64,000 nucleotides of DNA from positions 93,140 through 157,139 of the forward strand of contig JANWXW010000048.1 of assembly GCA_025057315.1 (NCBI GenBank). Reading direction: 5' to 3'. A program made the translations under genes and the position numbers. Positions within the stretch are counted from its first letter, which is position 1. Every line of letters begins with the position of its first letter. Positions 14,279 through 44,595 of this stretch are shown piece after piece. Below the pieces are notes generated by a model. That model had not been told where the DNA came from, ran no database searches, and saw only the letters and a list, made by a program, of their open reading frames with translations. The DNA comes from Myxococcota bacterium (GTDB taxonomy: Bacteria; Myxococcota_A; Polyangia; Palsa-1104; JAEUJZ01).

Positions 14279-14685
14279 GGGAACCGCCCCGTCCTCAGGT
14301 CGCCGTCGGGGTCGTGCTGTTTGATGAGGCCGGACGGGTGCTGCTGGTGCGCCGCGGCAAGGAGCCGGCCCAGGGGCGCTGGAGCGTGCCCGGTGGCCGC
14401 GTCGAGCCGGGGGAGCGGCTGGTGGACGCCTGCCTGCGCGAGCTGCGGGCCGAAACAGGGCTGGTGGCGCGCCTGGGGCCCCTGTGCGCGGTGGCCGAAC
14501 ACATCGACGACACCTGCCACTATGTGATCCTAGACTATGTGGCCCATGCGCCCAGCGGACAGCTGGTGGCCGGCGAGGACGCGGTGGAGGCCCGCTTTGT
14601 CACGCTGGAGGAGGCGGCCACGATGCCCCTGACCGAGGGGCTGCTGGCAGTGCTGCAGCGCGCTCGCGATGGGCTCAGTTCATAA
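14275..14685 (+). CDS. NUDIX hydrolase
   Basis: NUDIX box GGRVEPGERLVDACLRELRAETGL. The GTG start overlaps the methyltransferase stop (GTGA). Confidence 0.8.
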   Translation: MREPPRPQVAVGVVLFDEAGRVLLVRRGKEPAQGRWSVPGGRVEPGERLVDACLRELRAETGLVARLGPLCAVAEHIDDTCHYVILDYVAHAPSGQLVAGEDAVEARFVTLEEAATMPLTEGLLAVLQRARDGLSS

Positions 14686-15007
14686 GACGGGAAGAGGGCT
14701 GCGCCTCTGGCTCCTCCTCACCCAGCCCCTGCCGCGTCAGCAGAAAGCGCACCCGTCCCTGCCCCAGCTCGGTGGCGATCTCGGCCTCGAAGGCGGGACC
14801 GACGACGCTCCCTAGGACCATGTCCTTGCCCAGCCGCACCACCCGCCCCTCCACCAGGTCCCCCTGCAGGCGCTCGCTGCTCTCCTGCAGATGGTGCAGA
14901 CGGTAGGCAGCCTGATACAGGCGTTGCGCAACCTCTGGCTGCAGCGGCAGGGTGCTCGACAGCACGGCGATCAGCAGCCAGTAGGAGCCTGGCTCCGAGG
15001 ATGACAT
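14675..15007 (-). CDS. Hypothetical protein (about 110 aa) with an N-terminal hydrophobic segment
   Basis: Trimmed to the internal ATG (MSSSEPGSYWLLIAVLSS...). No family is recognised. Confidence 0.4.
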   Translation of the reverse strand: MSSSEPGSYWLLIAVLSSTLPLQPEVAQRLYQAAYRLHHLQESSERLQGDLVEGRVVRLGKDMVLGSVVGPAFEAEIATELGQGRVRFLLTRQGLGEEEPEAQPSSRLMN

Positions 15008-15210
15008 GCGCCTAGCGTACTGGATGCATCGCGCCCGCGCCATGGGCCGCTGCAGCAAGCGGTGGATCCTCGACGGACATGAGCCCCACACCGCCCGTGG
15101 GCAGAGGCCCGCTGCGGTCGCCGCAACCCCGGACCTCGGGCACGATCGCCCTGCGGGTGCGGGGCCTGTGGGCCTGGGGGACCCGGTCTGGCCATGGCCT
15201 GCTGCAGGAC

Positions 15211-17934
15211 CTAGGGAAGGTCGCGGGCGCGGTGGGCCGCGCTGGAGACGGGCAACTCAGCTGCGGCCACCGGCTGGAGCCAGGTCAGGCCGCCCGCTCC
15301 TGGTCGCCAGGGCGCAGGGGGCCAGCGCAGCGCGTGTCCGGCCGGACCCCGGTGGCAGCGCAGGCAGGCGCTGCCGCCGACGAGCACGCCGCGGCCTGGG
15401 CCGACCACCAGGTGGCCGTCTGCGTCGTAGCTGACGCCCTCCAAGGTGCCGTCTGGGCGTTCGATGAGCAGCTCCACGTCGCGCAGCGCCCCGCTGCCAT
15501 CCATCGTCTGGACCAGGGACAGCCGGTCCAGCCCTGCCCACAGCCGCTGCCGCACGCGCCGGTGGGGCCGCACCCGCGACTCACCGGGCGCCAGGTGCTC
15601 GGGTGGCGCTGCCTGCAGGGCATCGCCCAGCCGCTGAACCAGCTCCCCCAGGGTGGCGGGCAGCTCCCCCCGGTCGCGCCGCAGCCGCAGGATCTCGCCG
15701 TCCAGGTCCGTCCCGGGCGGCTGGCCTGCCTCCCAGGCCGAGAGGCGCTCCCGGTAGGCCGTGCTGTCCAGCTCTCGCACCAGCAGCACGCCGTCGGCGT
15801 CGGGGTCTGGCCGGGGCGCCTCGCCGGTGGCCGCAGCGATGTAGGCTGCCATGCGCTCCAGCGCCTGCGGGTCGCGGGTCGCCGGGCGAAACCGGCGCTC
15901 CGGCTCCAGCGCGGCCGCCGTGCGGTCCAGGGCGGACAGCAGCCCCGAGAGCCGCTCGGACAGCTCCGCCACCTCGGCGCGGGGCAGGCTGAGGCAGAGC
16001 ACGCGCGGCCGCAGCGCCTGGACCGCCCGCCGGACCCCTTCCATCCACATCTGCCCATCGGCTGGTCGGCGCAGGGCCGGAAGCGGGCAGGAACCACCCG
16101 CCTGACAGCCCACGGCCAGCCCGGACAGGGCCAGCTGCATCTCCAGCAGATCCCAGCGCTGCACCACGTCCTGGCCGGCCGCGCTGGTCTGCAGCGTCCG
16201 GCGGAGGCGGACAAAGCTGGCGCTGGCCCGCTGGTAGGCCGTGAGCAGGGCCTGCAGCCCGCCCAGCAGCCGGCCGCTGGCCTGCTCCGGGAAGGTCGCA
16301 GCCAGGGCGCTCAGGCCCGCCTGCTCTGCCTGCAGCATGAGCAGCGCGCCGGTCGGGATTCCATGCCGCGCCAGACGCTCCTCGCCCACGCGGACGACCC
16401 CGTACAGGAAGGGGGGCCGACCGAAGTAGCTGGCCGGCGGATGGAGCCCTGGCAGCAGGCGCCTCAGCGGCGCCAGGGGGTGGAGCTGGTCGGCCAGCAG
16501 CGTGCGCAGGGGCCCGGCCAGGGCAAAGGCACGCAGCAGGGCGCCACCGGGCGGGGCGGCACGGGCGCGGAGCAGCCCCAGCGCCTCCAGGGACGAGGCC
16601 GGCAAGGTGGCCTCCACGGCCACCGGCGCGTCAGGCGGCAGCGCCTCCAGGCGTGCCAGCGCCCCTGGGTCCTCCGGCCGGATCGGGCGAGCCCAGGACC
16701 GCAGCGTCGCCGTGCGGACCAGCAGCGGCCGCGGTTGCGTGCCGTCCTGCTCGCGCAGCACCAGGTAGGGGTAGCCCCGCGGCAGCCCAGAGGCACGCAA
16801 CACCTGCTCGGGTCGATCGAGCGCCTCCTCGAGCGTCGCGGCAGCCAGCGTCAGCAGGGCGGCCCGCTGGGGATGGCCCACCAGCGCCCGCAGGTTGCGC
16901 TGCGCCGGCGGCGCGTCGGCGCGAATCCGCAGCGGCACCATGCCCGCCGGCAGCTGGCGGGCCAGAGCCAGGTCCTCGCTGGTGGCCCCCTCCAGAAAGG
17001 CGCGCAGCAGGGGGCCGCGGAAGCCAACCCGCTGCGCCACCTGCAGCAGCGACTCACCCAGGACCGCAGCAGCCAGGCGGCTGAGCAGGGGCACCTCAGA
17101 GACAAAGGCATAGAGCGAGCGGAGCACCCCCTCCTCCAGCGGACCAAACTGCTGCTGCGCCTGTCGCGCCCAGGCAGGGTAAGGGGGGACCGGTGCCGTC
17201 GCCTCCCGGGCCCATCGGGCCGCGGCCGAGGGAGCCAGGCCGGCTCGCCTCAGGTCAATAAAGGCCGCTGTGCCCTGGGGGCTTCGGGCCAGCGCCGCCG
17301 CATCGGCGCGGGAGGCGGCCCAGTGGCGCATCAGGCGTCGCTGGCGGCGCGCCGGTGGCTCCGCCGGGTCCAGCAGCGCGCCCTCGCGTCGGATCGACCC
17401 GTCGGCCTCCAGCTCGTAGGCCAGGCCCCGCTCGTAGTCGCTGACATGGATGCCACCACGGCCGGTTGTCACCCGCACCAGCACCTGGCCCCCCGCATCG
17501 AGCAGCTCGTGCACGGTCGCCAGCGGGTCGCCCGCTGTGCCGCGGTGCTGCCCCTGCCGCAGGTCGGGGGGCAGCCCACGCAGCAGGTCCTGGAGCGCCG
17601 CCTCCAGGGGGGACCCGCCGGCCTCGCCTGGCCCCTGCCCCGCTGGCGCCCTCACCTCCATGCGCAGCGCGACCGGTGGGAACACATCCAGGGCCCCTGG
17701 TGAAACAGCCGCTGCGGATCGGACCGCCCCCCCCGCCCCCCAGGGGCGTCCGGGCCGCGCACCGGGGCTCGCCGCCGGGCGGGCCGCGTGGCCGTCGCAG
17801 CCGGGCTGGCGCGGGTCGAGGCAGCGCGCGGTGTCCTGGGCCGCCCGATCCGAACCGCGGTGCAGCTGCCAGCTGACCGCCCCCAGAACGCACAGGGCCA
17901 GAACGACGACGATCGCCCGGAGCAGGCCGCTCAT
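15211..17934 (-). CDS. Large hypothetical protein (907 aa) with an N-terminal signal/anchor and a C-terminal CXXCH motif
   Basis: MSGLLRAIVVVLALCVLGAVSW is a signal or anchor. The protein is Ala/Leu/Arg-rich and has ...GGSACLRCHRGPAGH near the C-terminus. The fully overlapping plus-strand ORF (15079..17703) is Gln/Gly/Arg-rich, typical of antisense high-GC sequence, and is rejected. Confidence 0.5.
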   Translation of the reverse strand: MSGLLRAIVVVLALCVLGAVSWQLHRGSDRAAQDTARCLDPRQPGCDGHAARPAASPGARPGRPWGAGGAVRSAAAVSPGALDVFPPVALRMEVRAPAGQGPGEAGGSPLEAALQDLLRGLPPDLRQGQHRGTAGDPLATVHELLDAGGQVLVRVTTGRGGIHVSDYERGLAYELEADGSIRREGALLDPAEPPARRQRRLMRHWAASRADAAALARSPQGTAAFIDLRRAGLAPSAAARWAREATAPVPPYPAWARQAQQQFGPLEEGVLRSLYAFVSEVPLLSRLAAAVLGESLLQVAQRVGFRGPLLRAFLEGATSEDLALARQLPAGMVPLRIRADAPPAQRNLRALVGHPQRAALLTLAAATLEEALDRPEQVLRASGLPRGYPYLVLREQDGTQPRPLLVRTATLRSWARPIRPEDPGALARLEALPPDAPVAVEATLPASSLEALGLLRARAAPPGGALLRAFALAGPLRTLLADQLHPLAPLRRLLPGLHPPASYFGRPPFLYGVVRVGEERLARHGIPTGALLMLQAEQAGLSALAATFPEQASGRLLGGLQALLTAYQRASASFVRLRRTLQTSAAGQDVVQRWDLLEMQLALSGLAVGCQAGGSCPLPALRRPADGQMWMEGVRRAVQALRPRVLCLSLPRAEVAELSERLSGLLSALDRTAAALEPERRFRPATRDPQALERMAAYIAAATGEAPRPDPDADGVLLVRELDSTAYRERLSAWEAGQPPGTDLDGEILRLRRDRGELPATLGELVQRLGDALQAAPPEHLAPGESRVRPHRRVRQRLWAGLDRLSLVQTMDGSGALRDVELLIERPDGTLEGVSYDADGHLVVGPGRGVLVGGSACLRCHRGPAGHALRWPPAPWRPGAGGLTWLQPVAAAELPVSSAAHRARDLP

Positions 17935-17951
17935 GGCGGAATGTTAGGATA

Positions 17952-19211
17952 TCACCTGGTCCCTGGCGGTGCGGCGTACAGGTCCAGCTGGGGGTCCTCG
18001 TGCAGGAGGCAGAAGACCTGGCGGATCTGCTCGTGGCCGGTGCGCAGCAGAAAGGCGCTGTTGCGCCCGTAGCTCTTGGCGCCCAGCACGAAGAAGCGCG
18101 GCTCTGGGCTCTGCAGCAGCTCGGGCCCCAGGGCGGGCTGGGCCAGGCAATCGCCTCCTGCGCCGACCAGGGCCGCGGCCAGCCTCATGAGCCCCCCGGT
18201 GGCATAGCACTCGTGGACTTGGAGCTCGCGGTACAGGGTGGGGTCCGGACCGTAGCCGGTCAGGCCGATGACCTCATCGCACAGCTCCTCGTGCCAGCGG
18301 TCCGCGCCCTGGCGCAGCAGCACGCGCAGCCGGGGGCCCTCAGCCGACAGGCTCTCTACAAAGACCCCGTGGAGAAAGCGCAGCTTCCCGCCCTGGGTGG
18401 CGCCGGCGCGGGCCAGCTCGTTGGCGGCGTGCATGAGGGCGGCCCGGCTGGGCAGCGGGTCCCCGGGGATCGGCACATACGGCGTCAACCCCTCCCGGCG
18501 CACAGCCCACACCACCTCGGTGCGTGGCTCCTGCCGCTGCAACTCCACGAGCGCACACGCCACCGTGGCTGCCGACAGCCCGGCGCCGACAACCAGGACC
18601 TTTCGACCGGCAAACCGGTGCCGATCGCGACCGAGGACGTCCGGAATGTGGCGCCACAGCCTGCTGCCCAGCCAGCGCTCGCCCGGGGCGGGGATGCCGC
18701 CGTCCCCCAGGGCGTTGGGGTGGCCATAGGTGCCGCTGCAATCGAGGACCACATCGGCATGCTCGATGTGCTCGCCGCTGCGGTCCTCCACGAGCAGACG
18801 GAAGGCGTGGCGGGCGCGGCCGGGGCGCCCAATGAGGTCCCCCTTGAGCAGGCCATCGCGGCCGATCTGGACCACACGGCTGTGGGTCTGGATGTGTCCG
18901 GCCAGCAGCGGGTCGCGGGACAGTGGCAGCAGGTACTGTTCTGCCAGCTCAGCGCCCGTTGGACAGATGGAATCCTCCGGCACGCGGTAGCCGGCCTCGG
19001 CGAGCCGGCGCGTGCCCAGTGGCGTGCGGTTCATGGCCCAGGGGGACAGCATGCGCACGTGCCGCCAGCTCAGGACCCCACGTGCCACCTCGCCCTGCTC
19101 GAAAAGGCGCACGTCGTGCCCCAGGCACCTGCCGTACAGGGCTGCCTCCAGGCCAATGGGACCGCCGCCCACAATGGCGATGCGGACAGCACGAGCGGCT
19201 GCACCGGTCAT
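17952..19211 (-). CDS. FAD/NAD(P)-binding oxidoreductase (two Rossmann folds; flavin monooxygenase / pyridine-nucleotide-disulfide-oxidoreductase-like)
   Basis: RIAIVGGGPIGLEAAL (FAD GxGxxG) and RKVLVVGAGLSAATVA (second dinucleotide site). Confidence 0.8.
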   Translation of the reverse strand: MTGAAARAVRIAIVGGGPIGLEAALYGRCLGHDVRLFEQGEVARGVLSWRHVRMLSPWAMNRTPLGTRRLAEAGYRVPEDSICPTGAELAEQYLLPLSRDPLLAGHIQTHSRVVQIGRDGLLKGDLIGRPGRARHAFRLLVEDRSGEHIEHADVVLDCSGTYGHPNALGDGGIPAPGERWLGSRLWRHIPDVLGRDRHRFAGRKVLVVGAGLSAATVACALVELQRQEPRTEVVWAVRREGLTPYVPIPGDPLPSRAALMHAANELARAGATQGGKLRFLHGVFVESLSAEGPRLRVLLRQGADRWHEELCDEVIGLTGYGPDPTLYRELQVHECYATGGLMRLAAALVGAGGDCLAQPALGPELLQSPEPRFFVLGAKSYGRNSAFLLRTGHEQIRQVFCLLHEDPQLDLYAAPPGTR

Positions 19212-31904: not shown

Positions 31905-32645
31905 ATGTCCGGCCACAACCGCTGGTCCACGATCAAGCACAGGAAGGCCATCGCCGATGCCAAGAAGTCCAAAGGGTGGACCAAGCTGCTCAAGGAGGTC
32001 ACGGTGGCCGCCCGGGGGGGCAGTGACCCTGGAGGCAACCCCCGACTGCGCGCAGCCATCGAGAAGGCCCGTGCTGCCAACATTCCCAACGACACCATCG
32101 AGCGCGCCGTCAAGAAAGGCTCCGGAGAGCTGACCGCCGACCAGCTGGAGGAACTGACCTACCAGGCCTATGGTCCAGGCGGCGTGGCCATCGTCATCGA
32201 GCTGGCCACCGACAACCGCAACCGCACCGCCTCCGAATTGCGCAAGCTGCTGGAAAAACAGAACGCCAAGATCGACACTTCCGGGTCTGTGATGCACAAG
32301 TTCAAGCGGCGCGGTCAGCTCATCTTCGATGCAGCCAAACATAGCGAGGATGCCATCACCGAGGCGGCTCTGGATCTGGGTGCCGAGGATGTGCGCGCCG
32401 AGGGCGATACGATCGTGGTGTTGACCGAGGCGCAGGACTTTCATCAAATCAAAGAAGCATTTGAGAAGCGGGGGCTGGTGCCCGAGAGCGGCGAGGTGGC
32501 GCTGGTGCCCGAGCAGACCGTGACGGTGGGCGAGCACGACGCTGAGGTCATCACCCGACTGCTGGAGGCGTTGGACGACCATGACGACGTGCTCAACGTC
32601 TATGCCAACTTCGAGGTGGCTGGCGGAGCGGCACAGACCTCGTGA
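31905..32645 (+). CDS. yebC: YebC/PmpR family DNA-binding transcriptional regulator
   Basis: MSGHNRWSTIKHRK...GGSDPGGNPRL is the invariant family N-terminus. Confidence 0.9.
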   Translation: MSGHNRWSTIKHRKAIADAKKSKGWTKLLKEVTVAARGGSDPGGNPRLRAAIEKARAANIPNDTIERAVKKGSGELTADQLEELTYQAYGPGGVAIVIELATDNRNRTASELRKLLEKQNAKIDTSGSVMHKFKRRGQLIFDAAKHSEDAITEAALDLGAEDVRAEGDTIVVLTEAQDFHQIKEAFEKRGLVPESGEVALVPEQTVTVGEHDAEVITRLLEALDDHDDVLNVYANFEVAGGAAQTS

Positions 32646-33148
32646 GAATCCTGGGTATCGATCCAGGGACACGGCTGTGCGGCTATGGCGTCATCGAGGT
32701 GGAGCCGGCAGGACAGCTGCGCTACGTTGAGTGCGGCGTGATGCAGCTTGGCGAGGGGAGGCCGCTGCCCATGCGGCTGCGGCAACTCTTTGCCGACTTG
32801 GGCGAGGTGGTCGGTGATCTGCAGCCGAACGAGGTGGCCCTGGAGGCGATTTTTCATGGCAAACATACCCAAGCGGCGCTGCGGCTGGGGCACGCTCGGG
32901 GGGTGGTGATGCTTCTGTGCGCGCAGGCTGAGTTGCGCCTGTTCGAATACACGCCTGCGACGGTCAAGCGGGCTGTCGTGGGGCACGGCCGTGCCAGCAA
33001 AGCCCAGGTGCAACAGATGGTGCGCTGGCAGTGCGGCCTGCGCTCCCCCCCTGCGCCCGATGCGGCAGATGCGCTGGCCCTGGCTCTGTGCCATGCCTAC
33101 CACCGCGGCGCCTCGGCATGGACCACGCGCAACAGGAGGCATACATGA
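32642..33148 (+). CDS. ruvC: Holliday junction resolvase RuvC
   Basis: MRILGIDPGTRLCGYGV (catalytic Asp), E at position 66, and conserved C-terminal acidic residues. The GTG start overlaps the yebC stop. Confidence 0.9.
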   Translation: MRILGIDPGTRLCGYGVIEVEPAGQLRYVECGVMQLGEGRPLPMRLRQLFADLGEVVGDLQPNEVALEAIFHGKHTQAALRLGHARGVVMLLCAQAELRLFEYTPATVKRAVVGHGRASKAQVQQMVRWQCGLRSPPAPDAADALALALCHAYHRGASAWTTRNRRHT

Positions 33149-33741
33149 TTGCCCGGCTGCGCGGGACGCTCATCGACAAGGGCCTGGACACGGTGGTGCT
33201 GGACGTGGGCGGAGTGGCCTATGAGGTAGCCGTGTCGCTGCAGACGCTGCAGGCCTTGCCCCCTGTCGGCCAGGAGGCCACGCTGCGGACCTACCTGCAG
33301 GTGCGCGAGGACGCGCTGCAGCTCTACGGGTTTGCTGATGAGGAGGAGCGGCGTGCCTTTCTGCTGTGCATTTCGGTCAGCGGCGTGGGTCCCCGTCTGG
33401 CCCTCGCTGTGCTTTCTGGCCTCGACCCTCAGGGGCTGGCGCAGGCCGTCCAGCGCGGCGATGTGGCCCGTCTCATGCGTCTGCCAGGCATCGGCAAAAA
33501 GACCGCCGAGCGCCTCGTGGTGGAGCTGCGGGATCGGTTCGGGCCGCCGCGCGGGCGGGGGGGTGCGCCGGCCGGTGCCCTTTCTAGCGGTCCGGGTGCC
33601 GAGGTCGTGGCTGCGCTGCAGAACCTGGGCTACCGCCCGCAGGAGGCAGAGCGGGCTGCCCAGCAGGCGCTGGCCCGGGAGCCCGACGCCCCGCTGGAGG
33701 TGCTGCTCCGCATCGCGCTGAGGGCCCTGCAGCGCGACTGA
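33145..33741 (+). CDS. ruvA: Holliday junction branch-migration protein RuvA
   Basis: MIARLRGTL..., helix-hairpin-helix (LMRLPGIGKKTAERLVVEL), and a C-terminal RuvB-interaction domain. The ATG overlaps the ruvC stop (ATGA). No ruvB follows. Confidence 0.9.
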   Translation: MIARLRGTLIDKGLDTVVLDVGGVAYEVAVSLQTLQALPPVGQEATLRTYLQVREDALQLYGFADEEERRAFLLCISVSGVGPRLALAVLSGLDPQGLAQAVQRGDVARLMRLPGIGKKTAERLVVELRDRFGPPRGRGGAPAGALSSGPGAEVVAALQNLGYRPQEAERAAQQALAREPDAPLEVLLRIALRALQRD

Positions 33742-33975
33742 TCGCCTGGACAACGAAGCCTGTCTCAGAAGACCTGTCCCGTGTCAGGGTCTTTCGACCC
33801 CGCAAGGGGTCCTTTGACCCTAGCTTCGATGGAGCACGCGGTGCATGGGTGAGCCGCAACTGCACGAGATGATAGAAGCCGGGGAGCCCGTTTGACCACG
33901 GCGGAGACGGCATGGCTCTTGCCGTGTGCCCTAGCTTAGGTCGGGGCTGTTTATCCCCGATGCTCAGGGATCAGC

Positions 33976-35292
33976 ATGGAGTACCTTCGATCACACCAGC
34001 GCACGCCTGCGGTGCTGTCCGTTTTTCTCGCATGGATGAGTAGTTGTCTTCCCAGCACAGAGCGGGCTCCATCCCCTCCGGAAATCCAGGTTCCGGACCT
34101 GGCCATGCCGGACATGGAGGAGGAACAGCTCCTGCTGGGCGATGGGGGTGAGCTGTCTGCGTACCAGATCTTTACCCGACTGGTGCTGCCGCTTATTCAG
34201 CCTACCTGCCGTGGCTGTCACGGGGGCCGCCCAGGCGACCTGGGTCCGCCCTTTATGGCCTCGGCGCACCCTGACCGCTATGACCCCTACCCGACCATGC
34301 GCAACTGGCGCAACTTCACGCCCGACATCCCGGAGCAGAGCCTGCTGCTGACGCGTGGTCCCCACGAGGGGCCGGCCCTGGACCTGGACCAGACGGCGGC
34401 GGTGCTGCGCTGGCTGCGCCAGGAGAAGGTGGAGCGGGACCTGCTGATCCCCCCGCCGACGCGACCCCAGACCCGGCCGATGGTCCCCCGGGCTGACGGC
34501 AGCCTCAACATCATCCAGCTGTCACAAATCGACCGGAAGCTGGAAGGGGCCTTCATCCAGTTTACCGCGCAGGTGAGCGCGGCGATGCGGGTCATCAACC
34601 TCCGCGACCTGCGCATCGTCAACCGGCTGCCAGGTGCACTGCCAGACGACCAGCGGACGATCCGCATCGCACGGCCCATTGCCATTGTATGGAACGACGG
34701 TCGGGCCCGGCCCGATGTCGGCGACAGTCTCGGTCACATCGACCGCAACATCAAGCTCAATGAAGATGACCGGCCTCCCCCCCAGGGCGCAGGCGGGCCC
34801 GGAATCCTGCTAACACCGCTGCTGACGCTGCCGAACTACAACGCCGGCGATGCGCTGAGCTTTGCCTTCAACATTGTCACGGTCGTCGGTCAGGTGGCTG
34901 CGCCGGACACCTGCCGCCCGATGGGTTTGCAGGTCTTCGGCACGCAGGTCAAGGAGTTCCTTGGCAAGATGAACGCCTGCTCGCGGGCGGGCTGCCACGA
35001 CGCCACAGCACGCGTTGGTGGGCTGAACTTCGTTCCGCTGCGCGACCACACCGGCACAAACTATGACTCGCTCGCCGAGCTGTGCGAGCAGGTCAAGTAC
35101 TACCGGAAGAACCGGGTTCTGGAGGGGAACATGAATCCGATGCCGCCGCCGGGCAACACCCATCGCTTCCGCTGGGGTCCCTATGTGTACCAGGGCGTAA
35201 GCTACAACGGCTGCAGAGACAACGGCTTCCCAGACGGCTGCTTCAGCACCTACGTGAGCCGGCTGGAGGCGTGGGCCGCAGTCGATCCGTAG
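33976..35292 (+). CDS. Exported CXXCH-motif protein (putative heme-c binding; PSCyt-like), possible lipoprotein
   Basis: N-terminal hydrophobic leader ending ...LAWMSSC, a CRGCH motif about 80 aa in, and a second CSRAGCH (CX4CH). No TM segments otherwise. Confidence 0.6.
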   Translation: MEYLRSHQRTPAVLSVFLAWMSSCLPSTERAPSPPEIQVPDLAMPDMEEEQLLLGDGGELSAYQIFTRLVLPLIQPTCRGCHGGRPGDLGPPFMASAHPDRYDPYPTMRNWRNFTPDIPEQSLLLTRGPHEGPALDLDQTAAVLRWLRQEKVERDLLIPPPTRPQTRPMVPRADGSLNIIQLSQIDRKLEGAFIQFTAQVSAAMRVINLRDLRIVNRLPGALPDDQRTIRIARPIAIVWNDGRARPDVGDSLGHIDRNIKLNEDDRPPPQGAGGPGILLTPLLTLPNYNAGDALSFAFNIVTVVGQVAAPDTCRPMGLQVFGTQVKEFLGKMNACSRAGCHDATARVGGLNFVPLRDHTGTNYDSLAELCEQVKYYRKNRVLEGNMNPMPPPGNTHRFRWGPYVYQGVSYNGCRDNGFPDGCFSTYVSRLEAWAAVDP

Positions 35293-35307
35293 CGGGCTGA
35301 CAAGGGG

Positions 35308-36711
35308 GTGCAAATGGCTTCCGAACGCGGACGCGTGCCGCCAAGGAGAATGAGCATGCGCAGAGGAACCACCGCAACGCTATTCAGTCTCGGGCTGGCC
35401 GCTAGCCTACCAGGCTGTGGCGGCGTCCATCCCGAGCAGGACACGGACCGGTCCGTCGAGTTCCGACACCACGGGGTGGACAGTCCGCCGATTCTTCAGC
35501 TCCCGGACTGGCGCTACATCCCACCCGGCTCTGGAATCCGAACCTCCGCAGGAGCCGGGGGGCTCTCGGACCCAACGGTCAACTACAGCCTAGCGCTGCG
35601 CACCGCTGCCATCAAGCTGGTGGGTGAGCTGCCCACGCTCGACGAGATCAAGCAAATGGAGGCCGCTGCCTCGACAAGCCAAGCCCACCAGGTCTACGTC
35701 TCCCTGGTCCGCAAATACATCAACGACCGGCCCCGCTTTGCCCGCCAGATGGTGCAGTACTGGCGCGACACCCTGCGCATGGGTGGCAGCATCATGGGTT
35801 TTGTCTCCGACACAAACAACATGCGTGCTGTGGATCTGGAGACCGGTCCTCGCTTTGCCGCTCAGCTCACCGTAGAGGGCAGCGACATGCGTCGCCTCTT
35901 CACGCAAGACCGCAACACGTGCCCGACCTACGATGTAGCCACCGGCAACTTCACCCCTGCTCCCTGTGCAGCGCGCGATGGCAACGAGGGTCTGCAGGAG
36001 GGCGAGCACGTGGGCATCCTGACGCACCCGGCCTTCCTCGCTCACTATTACTCCAACTATGCATTCCGCCGCGTGCGTCTCATCCAAGAGCTGTTTGCCT
36101 GCCACAAGTTTCCGGCTGAGTTTACCGACAAGCCGGAGCGAGGCGATGGCTACCTCTACGTGAGCCCGTGGCCCAAATTCAGCATCACCAGCCAGGAGCG
36201 CCCACCGGTGTTCACCGAGCGTCGGCGCATTCGCGGGCCGGGCTTCACCCGCGTCGCCGACATGAGGGACTATGCCTGGGTGCGCTACGGATTCGACTGC
36301 GCGAGCTGCCACGCAACCATGAACCATCAGGCACCGCTGTTTATGAACTTTGATGGCATCGGCATCCTGCGCACCCGCTCCATGGTACAGACCCCGGTGG
36401 ACGACGCGCCGTTTGCCCAGATGGCTGACTACGTGCCGGCAGGCGAGAAGATGGCGTGGCGGTACCAGAAGGAGACGCCGACGATCAGGGCCTTTGGCCA
36501 GGCCATGGCCGAGGACCCGGAGGTAATCAAGTGCTTCATCATCCGCGCTTGGAACCGCGCCATGTCGCGCGCCGACGTGGTCAACGACCTGGCCATTGTG
36601 CCCGACGCGGTGGTCCGGGAGCTGACCGAGCAGTTCAGGACCTCTCTCAACTACAACCTGAAAGAGGCGCTGCTGCTCATCTACACCCACCCGACTTTCA
36701 TCCGCTTCTAG
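35308..36711 (+). CDS. Lipoprotein with a CXXCH motif (PSCyt/PSD-like exported protein)
   Basis: Lipobox LAASLPGC and a CASCH motif in DCASCHATMNHQAP. It starts 16 bp after the previous gene. Confidence 0.65.
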   Translation: MQMASERGRVPPRRMSMRRGTTATLFSLGLAASLPGCGGVHPEQDTDRSVEFRHHGVDSPPILQLPDWRYIPPGSGIRTSAGAGGLSDPTVNYSLALRTAAIKLVGELPTLDEIKQMEAAASTSQAHQVYVSLVRKYINDRPRFARQMVQYWRDTLRMGGSIMGFVSDTNNMRAVDLETGPRFAAQLTVEGSDMRRLFTQDRNTCPTYDVATGNFTPAPCAARDGNEGLQEGEHVGILTHPAFLAHYYSNYAFRRVRLIQELFACHKFPAEFTDKPERGDGYLYVSPWPKFSITSQERPPVFTERRRIRGPGFTRVADMRDYAWVRYGFDCASCHATMNHQAPLFMNFDGIGILRTRSMVQTPVDDAPFAQMADYVPAGEKMAWRYQKETPTIRAFGQAMAEDPEVIKCFIIRAWNRAMSRADVVNDLAIVPDAVVRELTEQFRTSLNYNLKEALLLIYTHPTFIRF

Positions 36712-36725
36712 GGAAGGAGACGGCT

Positions 36726-37526
36726 ATGAGAATCAACAAGCTCCTCCTGACCGGCGCCCTCAGTGGAATTATGGGCGCAGGATGTTTCCCCACCTACGTG
36801 CCGGGTGGGCCTGCCCCGGTAGAGCCAGAGTCCGATAAGGGACCAGCCACCTCCACACGGCCATCCACCGAACCTGTGGCCGTTCGTCCGCCAGATCCGG
36901 CCCGCGACTCTAGCATGTTCCTCGATCAGGGCGATGCCACCCGGCTCCTTGATCTCATCGCCCGCGAAGGCACGCCCGACCAGACCAGTCGTATGCACGC
37001 TTGCATGAAGATGCGCTATGATACGCTGGGTCGTGTGCTCGCCAGCCGCGGCGTGAACATGGGCCCGCTGCCAGTGCAGCAGAACACCACCTGCACTGGC
37101 TTTACCGGCAACGCCTCCATGTCCCAGCCGGCGCGCTTTCTCTACTGCGACAGCCGCGTGACCCTGGGCCTGCCGCAGTACCCGGCACGCATCGCCGAGT
37201 CCCCCTTCCAGACGGCGGCCAGCGCGGTCAAGATGCACGACCTGTTCCTGGCAGCCGCCAGTGAGGTCGTGGCTGCCTTTGGCCCTGGCACCAGTCCACC
37301 GGCCTGCCGCATCAATGGCCAGCCCGTGCGCCTGTTCGAGGCGAACCACAGCTGTAACCGGGACGGCGTCGCGTGCCTGCTCGGCTTCCCACCGGGAGAC
37401 GACCTGCTGAACCTGTGCAACCAGCTGGTGCTGGCCGCCGAGGCCTCTGGCGGCCGCGACGCCCCTACCTCAGGCAAGCAACTCGCCGTCGCGGCAATAT
37501 TGGCGGTGGCGCACATGTGTGAGTAA
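36726..37526 (+). CDS. Lipoprotein, hypothetical
   Basis: The ATG at 36726 is preceded by GGAAGGAGA. Lipobox-like IMGAGC; Cys-containing mature region. The longer track ORF (from 36456) overlaps the upstream gene and is rejected. Confidence 0.6.
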   Translation: MRINKLLLTGALSGIMGAGCFPTYVPGGPAPVEPESDKGPATSTRPSTEPVAVRPPDPARDSSMFLDQGDATRLLDLIAREGTPDQTSRMHACMKMRYDTLGRVLASRGVNMGPLPVQQNTTCTGFTGNASMSQPARFLYCDSRVTLGLPQYPARIAESPFQTAASAVKMHDLFLAAASEVVAAFGPGTSPPACRINGQPVRLFEANHSCNRDGVACLLGFPPGDDLLNLCNQLVLAAEASGGRDAPTSGKQLAVAAILAVAHMCE

Positions 37527-37556
37527 CGACAGGTCCTCAAGACTAAGGAGCATACC

Positions 37557-39329
37557 ATGGCAAGAGAGCGGCTTCACGGAGCGACCCGTCGGGACTTCAT
37601 CCGGGGCGCCTTCGCACTCGGAGCAGCCCTGGGCTGGGGCCCGACCCGCATCTTCGAGTTCCTCGATCGCGGCGGCGGCCTGGCCCATGGCATTGGCGAG
37701 AAGGCGCAGAACCTGCTCGTTATCTGCGGCTTCGCTGGTGCCGGCGGCTACTGGCACAACCTGTTCCCTCACCCGGATGCCCTGGTCGGCCAAAACGCCA
37801 CCGCGACGCAGGGCGAGCGCTACGCGCCCCGCATGCCGCTGCACTTCCTGCAGGATGCAGCCGGCGGCGGCGTGGCCACGAACATGGGCGGCGCCTTCCT
37901 CGGGCGCTTCCACGACTACTCCGGCAACGGTGGACGCCTGGCGGCAATGCCCGATGCCGGCGGCGGTCTGGGGGCCTGGGCCCCGGGCGAGCGCTTCAAG
38001 CGGCTGCGCGGAGCGGCCAACATGGGATTCCGCGGCTTCCAGAGCCAGAACGACACCTCCAGAGCCATCGACCGGCGCATCTACGGCTCGGATCGCATTC
38101 CCAGCAACCGCAGCGTCAGCCCGAACGACAACTTCGTGGTCTATGCGCGCGAGTCGCCGTTCCAAAAGTATGGTCTCAAAAAGGGCATTACCCAGATCGA
38201 GGGTGGGCCCATCCAGATCCATGCCAACGGCGCGCAGAACCACCGCATCCGGACCAACGGCAACTGGACCATCATGGCAGCGGCGGCTACCTGCCAGCAG
38301 GAAGTGCGGCCCGCGGTGCTCCAGGCACTGCTCGTCGGACAGTACTCGGGGACGGGGTATGCCAATGCACGCGAGTTTTATGGCAACCTCCCCGGCGCGC
38401 CGGAGCCGGCCGTGGTCAACAACGCAGCAGGCATGGTGAGCCTGTTCGCCAGCAATGCCGTCAAGGCTGGCGGTGCGCTGATCAACCCGCGCAACGCCGT
38501 GCTGTATGAGGCCTTCTACAAGGGCATGCTCGGCACCCAGAAGTCCGCCACGCTCCCCACCTACTTCCGCTCCTACCAGACCACCAAGCTGGGCTCACAC
38601 CTGGTCGGCGTGAACCTGGCCGACAAGCTGACTCCGACCGCTGCTGACCAGCGGCGCTATGGCCTGACCGGCAACTCGCCGGCCAAGTTCGCCGAGTTCC
38701 GCAACCGCCTGATCATCGCCGAGAAGGCCTTCAAGCTCGGCCTGTCCACCATGATCTGCATCGGCATGGAGCCGGATGACATCCACTCGCTCTATACCTC
38801 GAGTGGGCAAGGTGGCATCAACGCCGCTCAGGCCTCAGCCATCCTGGGCACGTTCCTGGACGCCTTCATGGAGGGCCTGACGGTGGACGAGGAGGGCAAG
38901 CGCGTTCCCGATCCGTTCCATCCGGAGCTTACCCTGGGGGACAACACGGTCATCTTGTTCGTCCAGGACAACCTGCGCAGCACCTTCGACAACCCTGGCT
39001 GGCCGGATGACTCGCTGCTGAACCAAAACCGCGCCTGGATCCTGAGCAACGGTTTCCTCCAGGTCGGTGCCTTCGGCGGCGAGCGGCCCCTGTCCGCCGG
39101 CGGCAGCAGCGAGGGCGGCTACTTCGATCCGGTCACCGGCGACCTGCTCACCGCGACCCAGGCGGCCAACGCCTTTGCCGGTGGCAACACCGCACGGGTG
39201 CGGGAGATCTACGGCGAGATGGCCATGGCTGCCACGCTCTACGCCGTCACCCGCGGCAACACGCGACGCGTGGCCGACTTCTATACCGGCCCGGACTACC
39301 CCGTGCTCCGGGTACCCCAGCTCCTGTAG
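37557..39329 (+). CDS. Tat-exported protein (twin-arginine signal), DUF1501/DUF1552-like candidate
   Basis: N-terminus MARERLHGATRRDFIRGAFALGAALG is a textbook Tat motif (TRRDFIR plus an h-region). 590 aa, Gly/Asn-rich, no TM. Confidence 0.7.
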   Translation: MARERLHGATRRDFIRGAFALGAALGWGPTRIFEFLDRGGGLAHGIGEKAQNLLVICGFAGAGGYWHNLFPHPDALVGQNATATQGERYAPRMPLHFLQDAAGGGVATNMGGAFLGRFHDYSGNGGRLAAMPDAGGGLGAWAPGERFKRLRGAANMGFRGFQSQNDTSRAIDRRIYGSDRIPSNRSVSPNDNFVVYARESPFQKYGLKKGITQIEGGPIQIHANGAQNHRIRTNGNWTIMAAAATCQQEVRPAVLQALLVGQYSGTGYANAREFYGNLPGAPEPAVVNNAAGMVSLFASNAVKAGGALINPRNAVLYEAFYKGMLGTQKSATLPTYFRSYQTTKLGSHLVGVNLADKLTPTAADQRRYGLTGNSPAKFAEFRNRLIIAEKAFKLGLSTMICIGMEPDDIHSLYTSSGQGGINAAQASAILGTFLDAFMEGLTVDEEGKRVPDPFHPELTLGDNTVILFVQDNLRSTFDNPGWPDDSLLNQNRAWILSNGFLQVGAFGGERPLSAGGSSEGGYFDPVTGDLLTATQAANAFAGGNTARVREIYGEMAMAATLYAVTRGNTRRVADFYTGPDYPVLRVPQLL

Positions 39330-40670: not shown

Positions 40671-41630
40671 TCAGGTAGGGGGGTCTTCCACCTGGCCCTC
40701 CAGGCGCCGTCCCAGTTCCTCGATGGCCTCGAAGCCAAACTCAGGTACAAACAGGTAGGGTAGGTGGATCTGCCGCAACGGCAGTGCCGCCTCCAGGCGT
40801 CGCAGGTGCTGCTCGTTCAGCGCCGCGCGCTGCCTCAGAAGCCGCGCCGACTGAACAAGCGGCTCCAGTGGGCCCAGGTCGGATGCGCGCTCCAGTGCAT
40901 CCAGCGCCAGGGCCGACACACCCGCGCCAAAACGCGGCGGATAGAGTCGGTTTACCACCACCGGCCCCACGGGGAAGCCATGGTTCCGTAGCAGCCCATA
41001 GAGCTGGATGGTCTCGGTGACGGGCAGGTCCTCGGCCAGCGTCACCGGAAACATCTGGCAGCGTGCCGGGTCGGTGAGCAACTCGTGGCAGGCGCGCGCT
41101 GGGCCGGTCAGGGGACCCTCGGGCACGGTGTCCAGAATGACCTCGGGGATGCGCAGCAGGGTCACGCTGTGACCCGTGGCCGGCGCGTCCATGATCACCA
41201 GGTCAAAGCGTGGTCGCCCACCTATCTCCTCGGTGGTATGGTACCAAACCTTGCCCAGCATGGAGTAGTCGAGCAGCCCCGGGATGGCGCGCAGGAATGC
41301 GCGCACGATGTCGCGCTCGAAGACCTGCCTGTAGATGAAGGCCGAGCGCAGCACCATGATGCCATACTCGCGCAGCGCGGCCTCGGGGGTCATGTTCACC
41401 GCCCACAGGTTGTCTAGCACGGGCTGGATCTCCTGGAAGGACCGCCGGACGCCAAAGAGCTGGCCCAGGCGATCTTTGGACTTGGTCTGCGCCAGCAACA
41501 CGCGCCTTCCGCTCCGTGCCGCCAGCAGCGCCAGGGCACACGAAACCACCGTCCGACCCACCCCTCCCTTGCCGACGACCACAATGAGACGGCGGGTGAG
41601 CAGGCTGGGGGGGGGCCTGTGGCTTTGCAC
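40671..41630 (-). CDS. ArsA/GET3-family P-loop ATPase-like protein
   Basis: Deviant Walker A VVVGKGGVGRTVVS. The start is uncertain. The ATG at 41660 would collide head-on with the kamD-like ATG at 41659, so a GTG at 41630 is preferred. Confidence 0.65.
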   Translation of the reverse strand: MQSHRPPPSLLTRRLIVVVGKGGVGRTVVSCALALLAARSGRRVLLAQTKSKDRLGQLFGVRRSFQEIQPVLDNLWAVNMTPEAALREYGIMVLRSAFIYRQVFERDIVRAFLRAIPGLLDYSMLGKVWYHTTEEIGGRPRFDLVIMDAPATGHSVTLLRIPEVILDTVPEGPLTGPARACHELLTDPARCQMFPVTLAEDLPVTETIQLYGLLRNHGFPVGPVVVNRLYPPRFGAGVSALALDALERASDLGPLEPLVQSARLLRQRAALNEQHLRRLEAALPLRQIHLPYLFVPEFGFEAIEELGRRLEGQVEDPPT

Positions 41631-41658
41631 GCAGCCCAGGGTAGCATACTCTGGCACC

Positions 41659-43269
41659 ATGCAGCCTCTGCCGATCGATCCCGACATCGTGGCCGAGTGC
41701 CGCGCGCTGGCCGGTGCCATTGCGGACTCGGTGCAGCGATTCATCGTGGACCATACCACGGTCTCTATCGAGCGCACCGTGCTCCGTGCCTATGGCATAG
41801 AGGGTGTCAATCCAGACGGCGTGCCGCTCGTCAACACCTGCGTGGATCGCTATCACGAGCGTGGCCTGCTGGGCTGGGGCATCGCTTTCTTTCTCGGCTG
41901 GGCCCTGGTGCGTGGAGCGCGCACGCCGCAGGAGGCCGCCGAGGAACTGGCCTATGGAGAGGCGCCGGGCCTGGATCTCGGGGGGGACTTCCGTCCGGGG
42001 GCGGAGCTGGTCGCCCAGGTGCGTCGGGCTCTTGCGCAACCCACCGCGGAGGCCCTCGCGCGCATCGACAGTGCCCGTGCGGCACGTCAGGCAGCGCGGG
42101 AACGGCTCGGCATGGGCCCGGACCGGGACCGTCCGCGCGATGGCGTGCTGCTGCCGCCGGGGCCGCCGCTCAAGTACGTCATCGTCGCCACCGGCAACAT
42201 CTATGACGATGCGGATCAGGCACGCGCGGCGGCCGAGGCCGGTGCCGACATCGTGGCCGTCATCCGCTCCACGGCGCAATCGCTCCTCGACTATGTGCCC
42301 TATGGGGCCACCACCGAGGGCTACGGCGGCACCTGGGCAACCCAGGAAAACTTCCGCATTGTCCGCGCTGCGCTCGACGAGACGCAGGAACGGCTAGGTC
42401 GCTACCTGATGCAGGTCAATTACTCTTCGGGGCTGTGCATGCCCGAGATTGCCTACCTGGGCGCTGTCGAGCGGCTCGACATGCTGCTCAACGATGCCAT
42501 GTATGGCATCCTGTTCCGCGACATCAACCCACGGCGCACGCTGTGCGACCAGTACTTCTCTCGCCGCATCATCGCCCGCGCCGGCATGATCATCAACACC
42601 GGGGAGGACAACTACCTGACGACGGCCGATGCGGTGGAGGCGGCGCACACCGTGCTAGCCTCGCAGTTTATCAACGAGGCCTTCGCCTTGCGCGCCGGGC
42701 TCCGCGAGGAGCAAATGGGCCTAGGCCACGCCTTTGAGATCGACAAAGCGCTGCCAGATTCTCTGCTCCTGGAAATTGCCCAGGCGCAGCTGGTGCGACA
42801 GGTGTTCCCACGCCATCCCATCAAGTGGATGCCGGCCACCAAGCATAAGTCCGGGGACATCTTCTGGTCGCACCGGGTAGATGGTTTGTTTGACCTGGTG
42901 GGGGTGATGACTGGGCAGAGCATCGAGCTGCTGGGCATGATGACCGAGTCGATCCACACGCCGTTTTTGCAGGACCGCTACTGCGCGCTCAAGGGCGCTG
43001 CATACACCTTTACGGCCGCGCACCACCTGGGCGACGAGATCCAATGGAACCCAGAGGGGCGCATTGTGCGCCGCGCACGCCAAGTGCTCACCCAGGCGCG
43101 CGATCTGCTCGCCGAGGTCGCAGCGGAGGGTCTGTTTTCGGCCATCGCCCGGGGCGTGTTCGCTGATGTGAAGCGCGCTGAAACGGGCGGCCGGGGCCTG
43201 GCCGGCGTGGTGCGGCGGGCGCCTGGCTATCTGAACCCCCTACTGGAGGCGCTGGAAGCTCCATGCTAA
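41659..43269 (+). CDS. Lysine 5,6-aminomutase alpha subunit (KamD)-like TIM-barrel protein
   Basis: Long collinear similarity to KamD as recalled (HTTVSIERTVLRAYGIEGV..., LKYVIVATGNIYDDADQARAAAEAGADIVAVIRSTAQSLLDYVPYGATTEGYGGTWATQENFR, NTGEDNYLTTADAVEAAHTVLASQFINEAFAL, MGLGHAFEID). Trimmed to the ATG at 41659, which gives an N-terminal length matching KamD. Confidence 0.75.
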   Translation: MQPLPIDPDIVAECRALAGAIADSVQRFIVDHTTVSIERTVLRAYGIEGVNPDGVPLVNTCVDRYHERGLLGWGIAFFLGWALVRGARTPQEAAEELAYGEAPGLDLGGDFRPGAELVAQVRRALAQPTAEALARIDSARAARQAARERLGMGPDRDRPRDGVLLPPGPPLKYVIVATGNIYDDADQARAAAEAGADIVAVIRSTAQSLLDYVPYGATTEGYGGTWATQENFRIVRAALDETQERLGRYLMQVNYSSGLCMPEIAYLGAVERLDMLLNDAMYGILFRDINPRRTLCDQYFSRRIIARAGMIINTGEDNYLTTADAVEAAHTVLASQFINEAFALRAGLREEQMGLGHAFEIDKALPDSLLLEIAQAQLVRQVFPRHPIKWMPATKHKSGDIFWSHRVDGLFDLVGVMTGQSIELLGMMTESIHTPFLQDRYCALKGAAYTFTAAHHLGDEIQWNPEGRIVRRARQVLTQARDLLAEVAAEGLFSAIARGVFADVKRAETGGRGLAGVVRRAPGYLNPLLEALEAPC

Positions 43270-43282
43270 AAGAGCAAGACTG

Positions 43283-44113
43283 ATGGACCGATTGATCCTG
43301 ACCTTGGTGGGCTTGCTGCTGGGGCCGGTAGCGCTGGCTGCCGCGCCCGACCTGGCCCCGGCGAATCCATCCATCCCTGGCGTCGACACCAGCCAGATGA
43401 CGCCCTCAGAGAAGGCAACGCTGGTTAGGCTGGCGGAGAAGTTTCCATCGGGCTGCGGCAAGCCGCACTCGCTGCTTGTGTCGCTGCGCACAGACCCTGG
43501 TTGCCGTCGCTCTCAGATGGCGATCCAGACCCTGCGCAAGTGGCTCTTGGATGGCTTCCTGCCCAGCGAGGTGGAGGAGCGCTACGAGGCGCGCTACCTG
43601 TCAAAACCTTACGACATTGATATTACGGGCGCGCCGGTGCGCGGCGACCCGAAGGCACCGGTGGCGTTGGTGGAGTTTTCGGACTTCGAGTGTCCACACT
43701 GCAAAATGGCCGGGCCTCATCTCAAGCGCCTGCTGGCCGAGCAGCCGAAAGTGAAGCTGGTGTTCTTCAACTTCCCCCTGGGCGCTCACCCCAACGCGGC
43801 TCTGGCTGCCGCTGCGGCCATTGCGGCAGGCAAGCAAGGCAAGTTTTGGGCCTACCACGACAAGCTGTTCGAGAACCAGGGGCGGCTGTCGCCAGCGGAG
43901 TTTACGCGCATTGCCCAGGAGCTGAAGCTAGACATTCCGCGCTTTCTAGCCGACATGGAGGGAGCCAAGGTGCGCGTTGCACGCGAGCGCGCCCTGGGCG
44001 ACAAGCTCGAAATCTCTGGCACGCCGGCCTTCTTCATCAACGGCCGCCGCTACACGGACAGGGTGGATTACGAGACGCTGCGGGCCTGGGTGGAGGAAGA
44101 ACTGGCGCGATGA
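43283..44113 (+). CDS. DsbA-family thiol:disulfide oxidoreductase (exported)
   Basis: Signal peptide, then thioredoxin fold with CPHC (EFSDFECPHCK) and the DsbA-like helical insert. Confidence 0.85.
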   Translation: MDRLILTLVGLLLGPVALAAAPDLAPANPSIPGVDTSQMTPSEKATLVRLAEKFPSGCGKPHSLLVSLRTDPGCRRSQMAIQTLRKWLLDGFLPSEVEERYEARYLSKPYDIDITGAPVRGDPKAPVALVEFSDFECPHCKMAGPHLKRLLAEQPKVKLVFFNFPLGAHPNAALAAAAAIAAGKQGKFWAYHDKLFENQGRLSPAEFTRIAQELKLDIPRFLADMEGAKVRVARERALGDKLEISGTPAFFINGRRYTDRVDYETLRAWVEEELAR

Positions 44114-44595
44114 GGACCGGGGTTCTCCTTGCCGTGCTGCTGCTGGGCGTTGTGCCCGCCTGGGCCGGGCAGCAGCGGGGCCGGCCAGCGGCGGACTTCG
44201 TGCTGCCGGATGGCGCTGGCCAGACCGTGCGCCTCTCCTCGCTGCGGGGCACGGTGGTGGTGATCGACTTCTGGGCCAGCTGGTGCGAGCCGTGTATGCG
44301 AGAACTGCCGGAGCTGGATCGGCTGCAGAAGGAGTTCGCCGGCAAGGTCGTGGTGCTGCCCGTGAGCATCGACAAGGAGCGCAGCGAGGCCCTGGCCACG
44401 GCGCGCAGGCTACGCCTGGGCCTGCGCGTGCTCCTAGACACCGATGGGAGGGTGGTGGCGCTGTACGACCCACCCCGGATGCCGACCTCGTACGTGGTAG
44501 ACCGCCAGGGTGTGGTACGCTATATGCACGAAGGCTTTGACGGCCCCCGGGACATCGCCCGGCTGCGGCGGGAACTGGAGGAGCTCACACGCTAG
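44110..44595 (+). CDS. TlpA/ResA-like periplasmic thioredoxin (redoxin family)
   Basis: The ATG at 44110 overlaps the dsbA-like stop (ATGA). Signal peptide, then WCEPC active site (VIDFWASWCEPCMRELPEL). Confidence 0.85.
   Translation: MRTGVLLAVLLLGVVPAWAGQQRGRPAADFVLPDGAGQTVRLSSLRGTVVVIDFWASWCEPCMRELPELDRLQKEFAGKVVVLPVSIDKERSEALATARRLRLGLRVLLDTDGRVVALYDPPRMPTSYVVDRQGVVRYMHEGFDGPRDIARLRRELEELTR

Follow-up and report, generated by a model that had tools for sequence, protein, structure and literature searches.

A 64,000-nt stretch of DNA from a Myxococcota bacterium (assembly GCA_025057315.1, contig JANWXW010000048.1, positions 93,140–157,139; hereafter, the window) possesses a cassette of four consecutive plus-strand genes, which are designated as g1–g4 and form a fixed unit that is co-inherited in myxobacteria. 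The products of g1, g2, and g3 are lipoproteins, with two haem-c attachment motifs in g1 and one in g2, and the product of g4 has a twin-arginine translocation (Tat) signal and a predicted alkaline-phosphatase-superfamily core. A first-pass annotation of this DNA had described four co-directional genes for exported proteins and likened them to the planctomycete PSCyt/PSD cytochrome-like proteins paired with Tat-exported DUF1501/DUF1552 proteins. The open reading frames (ORFs), signals, and motifs bear out the former description, and the latter analogy holds in kind but not in detail. We propose that the four products are the subunits of a metalloenzyme complex outside the cytoplasm, in which up to three haems form an electron-transfer chain, a reading to which we assign a probability of approximately 45%.

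Conservation of the four-gene cassette

A metagenome scan anchored on g2 retrieved 239 relatives; 80 loci were retained and scored with hidden Markov models (HMMs) of the four families. At these loci, g1 was found upstream of g2 in 52 of the 53 cases with room for it, g3 downstream of g2 in all 62, and g4 downstream of g2 in 47 of 48, with g3 always between g2 and g4. Every locus long enough to hold all four genes (27/27) had them in the same order and on the same strand, and the same gene set and order are also present in named Myxococcota genomes. The genes grouped by the first-pass annotation are thus conserved neighbors. GC-rich DNA yields many long shadow ORFs, and several long minus-strand ORFs overlap the cassette region, so the four ORFs might be regarded as artefacts or unrelated neighbors. 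However, all four have protein-level homologues with invariant functional motifs at up to approximately 100 independent loci, with fixed synteny on dozens of independent contigs, and the probability of this explanation is practically negligible.

Homologues of g4 are very rare: 16 clusters were found among 5.8 billion proteins, a profile search retrieved 287 representatives among 1.84 billion, and the contigs that encode them bear the same neighbor genes. In addition to the long form in the window, there is a shorter version of the cassette, the products of which (approximately 390, 412, 230, and 462 amino acids (aa)) are homologous to g1, g2, g3, and g4, respectively. A narrower g4 alignment, which finds the long form only, matched just five Myxococcota/Polyangia metagenome-assembled genomes (MAGs) among 185,579 species genomes. 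By tblastn against plasmids, neither g4 nor a distant g4 relative gave a match.

Clustering of the flanking ORFs at 98 loci revealed no universal fifth gene; the clusters obtained (fatty-acid hydroxylase, methyltransferase, T2SSE, and DUF3570) mirror the synteny of sublineages. A metallo-beta-lactamase (MBL)-fold gene was considered as a further member of the system and rejected because it adjoins or lies inside the cassette only at two loci, L001 and L003 (L numbers designate individual loci). A class-I S-adenosylmethionine-dependent methyltransferase gene is located approximately 40 nt 3' of g4 at L053 and eight related loci, which make up a nine-locus sublineage; methyltransferase genes are also found near other cassettes (L002:9990–11615 and L004/L005), and this arrangement is absent from the window. 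DUF3570 and DUF4266 genes lie a few kb downstream of short-form cassettes at L009, L011, L029, L047, and L084. Near the L010 cassette the copy is partial and upstream; the pairing is not universal and was not seen in the window. One Polyangia MAG, GCA_038231615.1, carries two partial cassettes across L002/L015 and L003/L013: one consists of g2, g3, and g4 without g1, and the other lacks g2 and g3, so that g4 comes immediately after g1. The latter pair adjoins a divergent MBL-fold gene and genes for two further proteins, one of 149 aa that is rich in Cys and one of 442 aa that has two CXXCH motifs.

The Tat-exported protein g4

The g4 gene (37557–39329, plus strand) encodes a 590-aa protein with the N-terminus MARERLHGATRRDFIRGAFALGAALGWGP, and AAGGAG precedes its start. 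The twin-arginine signal stretch ATRRDFIRGAFALGAALGWGP contains the Tat motif TRRDFIR, with R11 and R12 at nt 37587–37592; the Arg pair is present in 50 of 51 homologues, in agreement with the signal assigned by the first-pass annotation. A predicted model of moderate confidence (predicted local distance difference test score, 72.9) gives the core of g4 the alpha/beta fold of the alkaline-phosphatase superfamily. Its structural neighbors are all phosphatases, phosphodiesterases, sulfatases, or phospho-transferases, with a sequence identity of 7–13%. DUF1501 and DUF1552 belong to the same superfamily according to the Pfam clans. Thus, of the DUF1501/DUF1552-type Tat-exported partner that had been envisaged, the Tat signal and the superfamily fold stand, and the assignment to DUF1501 or DUF1552 by HMM does not.

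In the alignment of g4 homologues, H222, Q247, D408, H410, D452, D471, W482, and D484 are fully conserved, with near-complete conservation of N491 and the Arg pair. D408-x-H410 follows the predicted strand 399–404, and D471 ends strand 464–471; the window sequence reads DDIH at nt 38775–38786. Because the His/Asp set is invariant, g4 is predicted to retain a metal site. Catalytic members of the superfamily have a metal-binding Asp and a Ser/Thr/Cys (formylglycine) nucleophile after strand 1. In the corresponding segment of g4 (residues 52–65, LLVICGFAGAGGYW), G61 is the sole invariant residue, conservation is confined to glycines, and no acidic or hydroxyl/thiol residue is conserved. Besides this and the low identity, g4 differs from PafA, PhoK, nucleotide pyrophosphatases/phosphodiesterases, S1 sulfatases, and phosphoethanolamine transferases in possessing large family-specific insertions, including residues 75–200 in the long form. 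Neither g4 nor 25 relatives matched any Pfam or NCBIfam model, and profile searches of PDB sequences with g4 and g2 found nothing beyond a match of the Tat signal to a hydrogenase small subunit.

The partner protein g2 and its relatives

The g2 gene (35350–36711, plus strand; alternative starts, GTG at 35308 and ATG at 35356) encodes a lipoprotein of approximately 451–453 aa that resembles PSCyt2, PSCyt3, PSD, and DUF1800 proteins. Its CASCH motif is located at nt 36298–36312, and the corresponding C315xxC318H319 is present in 80 of 80 homologues, in which four further cysteines are also invariant, as are a number of charged residues. The first-pass annotation had noted both this motif and a lipobox. 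The former is confirmed, as is the lipobox Cys, which is invariant in a 20-sequence alignment; the lipobox itself, SLPGC, is non-canonical at position −2 and matches a relaxed pattern only.

The kinship of g2 was examined with the Pfam models for the partner proteins (PF07583, PF07587, PF07627, and PF07624). The window protein falls just short of the cut-offs, both for PSCyt2 at residues 93–167 (E = 1e-5, 26.1 bits; cut-off, 29.8) and for PSCyt3 at residues 329–357 around CXXCH (E = 3e-4, 21.3 bits; cut-off, 27). Among 20 members of the g2 family, PSCyt3 was matched by 17, PSCyt2 by 13 (best E, 1e-10), PSD2 by 10, PSD1 by 7, and DUF1800 by 3, and the precomputed Pfam assignment of a deposited copy of g2 is PF07583. 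The family matches and the near-threshold matches in the window support the suggested kinship with the planctomycete PSCyt/PSD proteins; judged from these sequence comparisons, g2 stands at the periphery of the group and is not one of its core members.

Homologues of g2 at three loci (L001:4300–6100, L014:2150–5990, and L024:1–1240) are broken at the same codon position (...RQMxQFW/RNTLRMGG, where the slash marks the break), with different inserts. The site is equivalent to approximately 35743–35790 of the window and falls within a helix, rather than between domains, of the g2 model. The 1.7-kb insert at L001 bears a signal-less MBL-fold gene and has duplicated ATGCAG flanks and inverted ends, GACTGTCAC/GTGACAGT, and the 3.7-kb insert at L014 bears a tyrosine recombinase gene and a two-component system and is flanked by a 12-bp direct repeat, TTCCACTTCTGG. 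At L024, homology begins abruptly at FWRN, and g1 is absent.

The lipoproteins g1 and g3

The g1 gene (33976–35292, plus strand) encodes a 438-aa protein in which both predicted motifs, CRGCH (nt 34207–34221) and CSRAGCH (CX4CH; nt 34978–34998), are present. Its lipobox, WMSSC, fits a PROSITE-style pattern; g1 is therefore also a lipoprotein, a feature absent from the first-pass annotation. In 50 of 50 homologues, the lipobox Cys (C24), C78xxC81H82, C340H341, C370, and H396 are invariant. Short-form relatives have CXXCH as their second motif, in place of the CX4CH of the long form. A word-based search retrieved only six g1 homologues. Among 11 members scanned, sub-threshold matches to Cytochrome_CBB3 were found in 9 (best E, 1e-4) and to Cytochrom_C in 5, and none matched PSCyt1. 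These weak, generic cytochrome-c signals do not sustain the idea that g1 is a PSCyt1-type protein. g1 resembles class I c-type cytochromes in its CXXCH near the N-terminus and CX2-4CH near the C-terminus, both of which are embedded in segments of approximately 100 residues with weak similarity to Cytochrome_CBB3 or Cytochrom_C. Unlike these cytochromes, it stays below the Pfam thresholds in all matches, has a domain of approximately 180 residues between the motifs, and shows no evident conserved Met ligand; the invariant H396 is a candidate distal ligand.

The g3 gene (36726–37526, plus strand) encodes a 266-aa lipoprotein of an unnamed family without a Pfam or NCBIfam match. As the first-pass annotation had it, the stretch MRINKLLLTGALSGIMGAGC lies behind a Shine-Dalgarno site, GGAAGGAG, which is located 6 nt 5' of the g3 ATG. 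H91-x-C93-x-K95, R155, E158, D172, C194, and C217 are invariant, and C265, the penultimate residue (...HMCE-stop), is present in 56 of 57 homologues. Kinship of g3 with g1, g2, or g4 was considered and rejected, as hhalign aligned only the lipoprotein signal peptide. Lipoboxes were judged by a PROSITE-type pattern, which g1 and g3 of the window match; it is matched by 43 of 50 g1, 52 of 80 g2, and 48 of 57 g3 proteins, and the lipobox Cys is invariant in g1 (50/50), g3 (57/57), and the g2 alignment (20/20).

Relationship to known partner–enzyme modules

The PSCyt/PSD and DUF1501/DUF1552 families are highly expanded in Planctomycetes and Verrucomicrobia and have had no assigned function since their initial description in Rhodopirellula baltica (PMC3542564; PMC5615132). 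PSCyt/PSD genes adjoin DUF1501/DUF1552-type genes: PSCyt1/PSCyt2/PSD1 proteins are encoded beside Tat-signal DUF1501 proteins, and PSCyt3-type proteins beside a second uncharacterised family (PMC3542564; PMC5615132). A four-gene version in the Planctomycetes–Verrucomicrobia–Chlamydiae (PVC) group comprises DUF1501, a signal-peptide protein, a PSCyt1/Big_2/PSCyt2/PSD1 protein, and a PSCyt1/WD40 protein (Kamneva et al. 2012, PMC3542564).

The cassette shares with the PSCyt1/PSCyt2/PSD1–DUF1501 modules (PMC3542564) a PSCyt2/PSD1-like CXXCH partner and an adjacent Tat-exported protein of the alkaline-phosphatase superfamily, and with the four-gene PVC cluster an extra cytochrome-motif protein, an extra signal-peptide protein, and the lack of an assigned function. 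It differs in that g2 is compact (approximately 450 aa) and lipid-anchored, the cytochrome-like domains are on the separate g1 protein without a PSCyt1 match, g3 has no recognisable PPC domain, and g4 has no DUF1501 HMM match. The gene order (cytochrome, partner, small protein, enzyme) is also different, and the named hosts are Myxococcota, not PVC bacteria. With regard to the modules of PSCyt3/PSD2-5 (DUF1588/DUF1585/DUF1587/DUF1592/DUF1595) and DUF1552, similarity to PSCyt3 surrounds the CXXCH in the C-terminal half of g2, PSD2 is found at the C-terminus of g2 homologues, and the partner gene product is Tat-exported; unlike these modules, g2 has no PSD3-5, and g4 has no DUF1552 HMM match.

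A third type of module is the DUF1800–DUF1501 operon pair (PMC5122149). We probed a plasmid collection with a DUF1501-like peptide, which yielded 50 records, and opened eight regions. All eight, from Alphaproteobacteria, Thermus, and Bacteroidota, had DUF1800 followed by DUF1501 with Tat signals, i.e., the order of partner and then enzyme. The view that such pairs are rare outside Planctomycetes and Verrucomicrobia must therefore be qualified, given that this sister pair is common on proteobacterial, Thermus, and Bacteroidota plasmids. These pairs resemble the cassette in their order of a partner and a Tat-exported enzyme-like protein and in their collinear g4 and DUF1501 motifs, and three g2 homologues match DUF1800. 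They differ from it in that CXXCH is missing from the DUF1800 proteins, several of which also show no evident signal peptide, and in that g1 and g3 have no equivalents. The DUF1800 proteins without an evident signal peptide (L099, L102–L104, and L106) adjoin DUF1501 proteins with a Tat signal, as would be expected if the two were exported together in a complex.

Profile–profile comparison gave suggestive values only, both for the g4 family against eight real DUF1501 proteins by hhalign (P = 0.002, probability 13%) and for the g2 family against DUF1800 (P = 0.0018, probability 15%); mismatched controls gave P = 0.3–0.9. A relaxed alignment of g4 with DUF1501 runs end to end with the conserved motifs paired in order: the RR, the G-rich loop after strand 1, H222 with SHF, DDPH with WDTH, GDTPK with EFGRT, and DGT with GTDHG. 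Taken together, it is well supported that the cassette is a divergent, "unbundled" member of the modules that combine a partner with a Tat-exported enzyme. Its additional components, a separate cytochrome-like lipoprotein with two motifs and a small lipoprotein, parallel those of the most complex four-gene PVC cluster.

Proposed function and alternatives

In the proposed complex, the four genes would constitute one operon whose products assemble outside the cytoplasm. g4 would be the catalytic subunit, exported already folded by the Tat system, with a metal center probably held by H222, D408, H410, D452, D471, and D484. Its obligatory partner would be g2, lipid-anchored with one haem-attachment site and homologous to the PSCyt2/PSD1, PSCyt3/PSD2, and DUF1800 proteins that are always encoded beside DUF1501/DUF1552. 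g1, lipid-anchored with two haem-attachment sites, would connect redox carriers of the periplasm with the g2/g4 site by electron transfer, and g3 may act as a lipid-anchored, Cys/His-rich accessory subunit. In its boldest form, which we regard as unlikely, the proposal would make g4 the first alkaline-phosphatase-superfamily protein with redox activity, one that has lost the nucleophile and retains a His/Asp metal center that is loaded in the cytoplasm and wired through the g2 haem and the two g1 haems to the periplasmic electron-transfer chain.

Several observations weigh against the proposed complex. We know of no alkaline-phosphatase-superfamily member that is a redox enzyme. A Foldseek search of the PDB with g4 gave no significant match, with hits mostly of the same superfamily, and the confidence of the g4 model is no more than moderate. 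No HMM match to DUF1501 (PF07394) or DUF1552 (PF07586) was obtained for g4 and 15 close homologues (E ≤ 10) or 10 distant ones (E ≤ 0.1), and the profile–profile link between g4 and DUF1501 is weak. The missing conserved Asp and Ser/Thr/Cys nucleophile after strand 1 of g4 also counts here. Finally, CXXCH was found in none of the seven DUF1800 partners examined, from which it follows that haem is not intrinsic to the wider partner–enzyme module.

The last point would also suit hydrolytic nutrient scavenging, in which g4 hydrolyses or transfers phospho- or sulfo-esters of the envelope or the environment, g2 and g3 bind or present the substrate, and the haems have a sensing or regulatory rather than a catalytic role. 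The structural neighbors of g4 all have activities of this kind, and in Verrucomicrobia, PSCyt genes are often found near sulfatase genes, with carbohydrate-binding modules (PMC5615132). However, the loss of the nucleophile and of the strand-1 Asp is at odds with hydrolysis, no conserved phosphate- or sulfate-uptake genes were found among the flanking-ORF clusters of the 98 loci, and three haem motifs that are 100% conserved across 50–80 homologues would be costly for a purely regulatory role. We consider this explanation, one of the two main rivals, improbable.

The absence of a canonical nucleophile would also fit a reading in which g4 is a pseudo-enzyme in a non-redox envelope binding or scaffold complex, in which the CXXCH and CX4CH motifs serve disulfides or metals (Zn/Cu/Fe) rather than haem. 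The structural neighbors of g4 include YejM/PbgA, a non-catalytic protein of the alkaline-phosphatase fold; the predicted fold of g2 resembles no cytochrome, and g2 and g3 have several further invariant cysteines. Nevertheless, in all three motifs the second Cys is always followed immediately by His, the motif segments of g1 weakly match class-I cytochrome-c models in 9 of 11 members, and the invariant His/Asp cluster of g4 points to a retained metal site. On balance, we hold this possibility to be rather doubtful.

The first-pass annotation had also pointed to a DsbA/TlpA-type pair approximately 4 kb downstream (a DsbA-like gene at 43283–44113 and an AhpC/TSA-redoxin ORF at 43690–44595), which would make the cassette part of a system for thiol redox or for the maturation of c-type cytochromes. 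However, a lysine-aminomutase gene and two genes on the minus strand intervene, and a DsbA-like ORF lies near the cassette at 1 of 98 loci and a TlpA-like ORF at none; the conserved flanking clusters likewise include no thioredoxin-fold family. Owing to this lack of co-occurrence, the link is largely refuted, and the idea is very improbable.

Gene starts, promoter region, and surroundings

The spacing of the genes, given as 16, 15, and 31 bp in the first-pass annotation, needs correction. AAGGAG at 35341–35346 points to the ATG at 35350 or 35356 as the start of g2, and the deposited protein P0017, a copy of g2 from a "Myxococcales bacterium" MAG, starts at 35356; the g1–g2 spacer is therefore approximately 57–63 nt rather than 16. 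The g2–g3 and g3–g4 gaps are 14 and 30 nt, respectively. A simple sigma-70 promoter and terminator scan, otherwise uninformative, found no plus-strand terminator-like site within the cluster.

A tentative candidate for a sigma-54-type −24/−12 promoter element, GGCATGGCTCTTGC, is located on the plus strand at 33909–33922, 54 nt 5' of the g1 ATG. This element reads GGCAT-N5-TTGC; the scan gave three matches in the window against 2.25 expected, which is not significant alone. GGCAY-N5-TTGC was found within approximately 300 nt 5' of g1 at 10 of 42 related loci, where approximately 0.4 would be expected from the background rate; the ten loci are partly from one sublineage and all short-form. The cassette operon is thus possibly driven by a sigma-54 promoter, as far as sequence patterns can indicate. 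No riboswitch or other RNA family was found upstream of g1 with Rfam. Between ruvA and g1, an imperfect 16-nt inverted repeat, AGGGTCTTTCGACCCC/GGGGTCCTTTGACCCT, is present at 33786–33821, approximately 90–120 nt 5' of the sigma-54-like element. It may bind an activator or, alternatively, terminate ruvA transcription.

The surroundings of the cassette are unrelated housekeeping genes. Genes for a class-II aminoacyl-tRNA synthetase, yebC, ruvC, and ruvA lie on its 5' side, and the cassette follows ruvC and ruvA (32642–33976) where ruvB might follow. The genomic position of the cassette is not conserved, because ruvA adjoins it at none of the related loci. On the 3' side are a convergent BNR/sortilin-like gene and genes for an ArsA-like ATPase, a lysine-5,6-aminomutase alpha subunit, a DsbA-like protein, and an AhpC/TSA redoxin. 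In this region (41335–44595), the aminomutase alpha-subunit gene (E = 1e-223) is followed directly by the DsbA-like and redoxin genes, and no obvious B12-binding beta subunit is encoded directly after it. Elsewhere in the window, a minus-strand tRNA gene (12291–12364) is the sole Rfam match, and the G+C content is unusually high at 14001–18000 (0.73–0.76) compared with that around the cassette (0.63–0.69).

Implications

The g1, g3, and g4 families have no Pfam or NCBIfam model and are hence invisible to current annotation. The cassette represents a stripped-down, split version, in a different phylum, of the modules expanded in Planctomycetes and Verrucomicrobia, with each part encoded by a separate and strictly co-inherited gene. 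This split arrangement shows which components go together and which residues cannot be spared, and it offers a simpler four-protein system for biochemistry. If g4 is redox-active, it would follow that the large PSCyt, DUF1501, and DUF1552 families of Planctomycetes and Verrucomicrobia consist of oxidoreductases rather than hydrolases.

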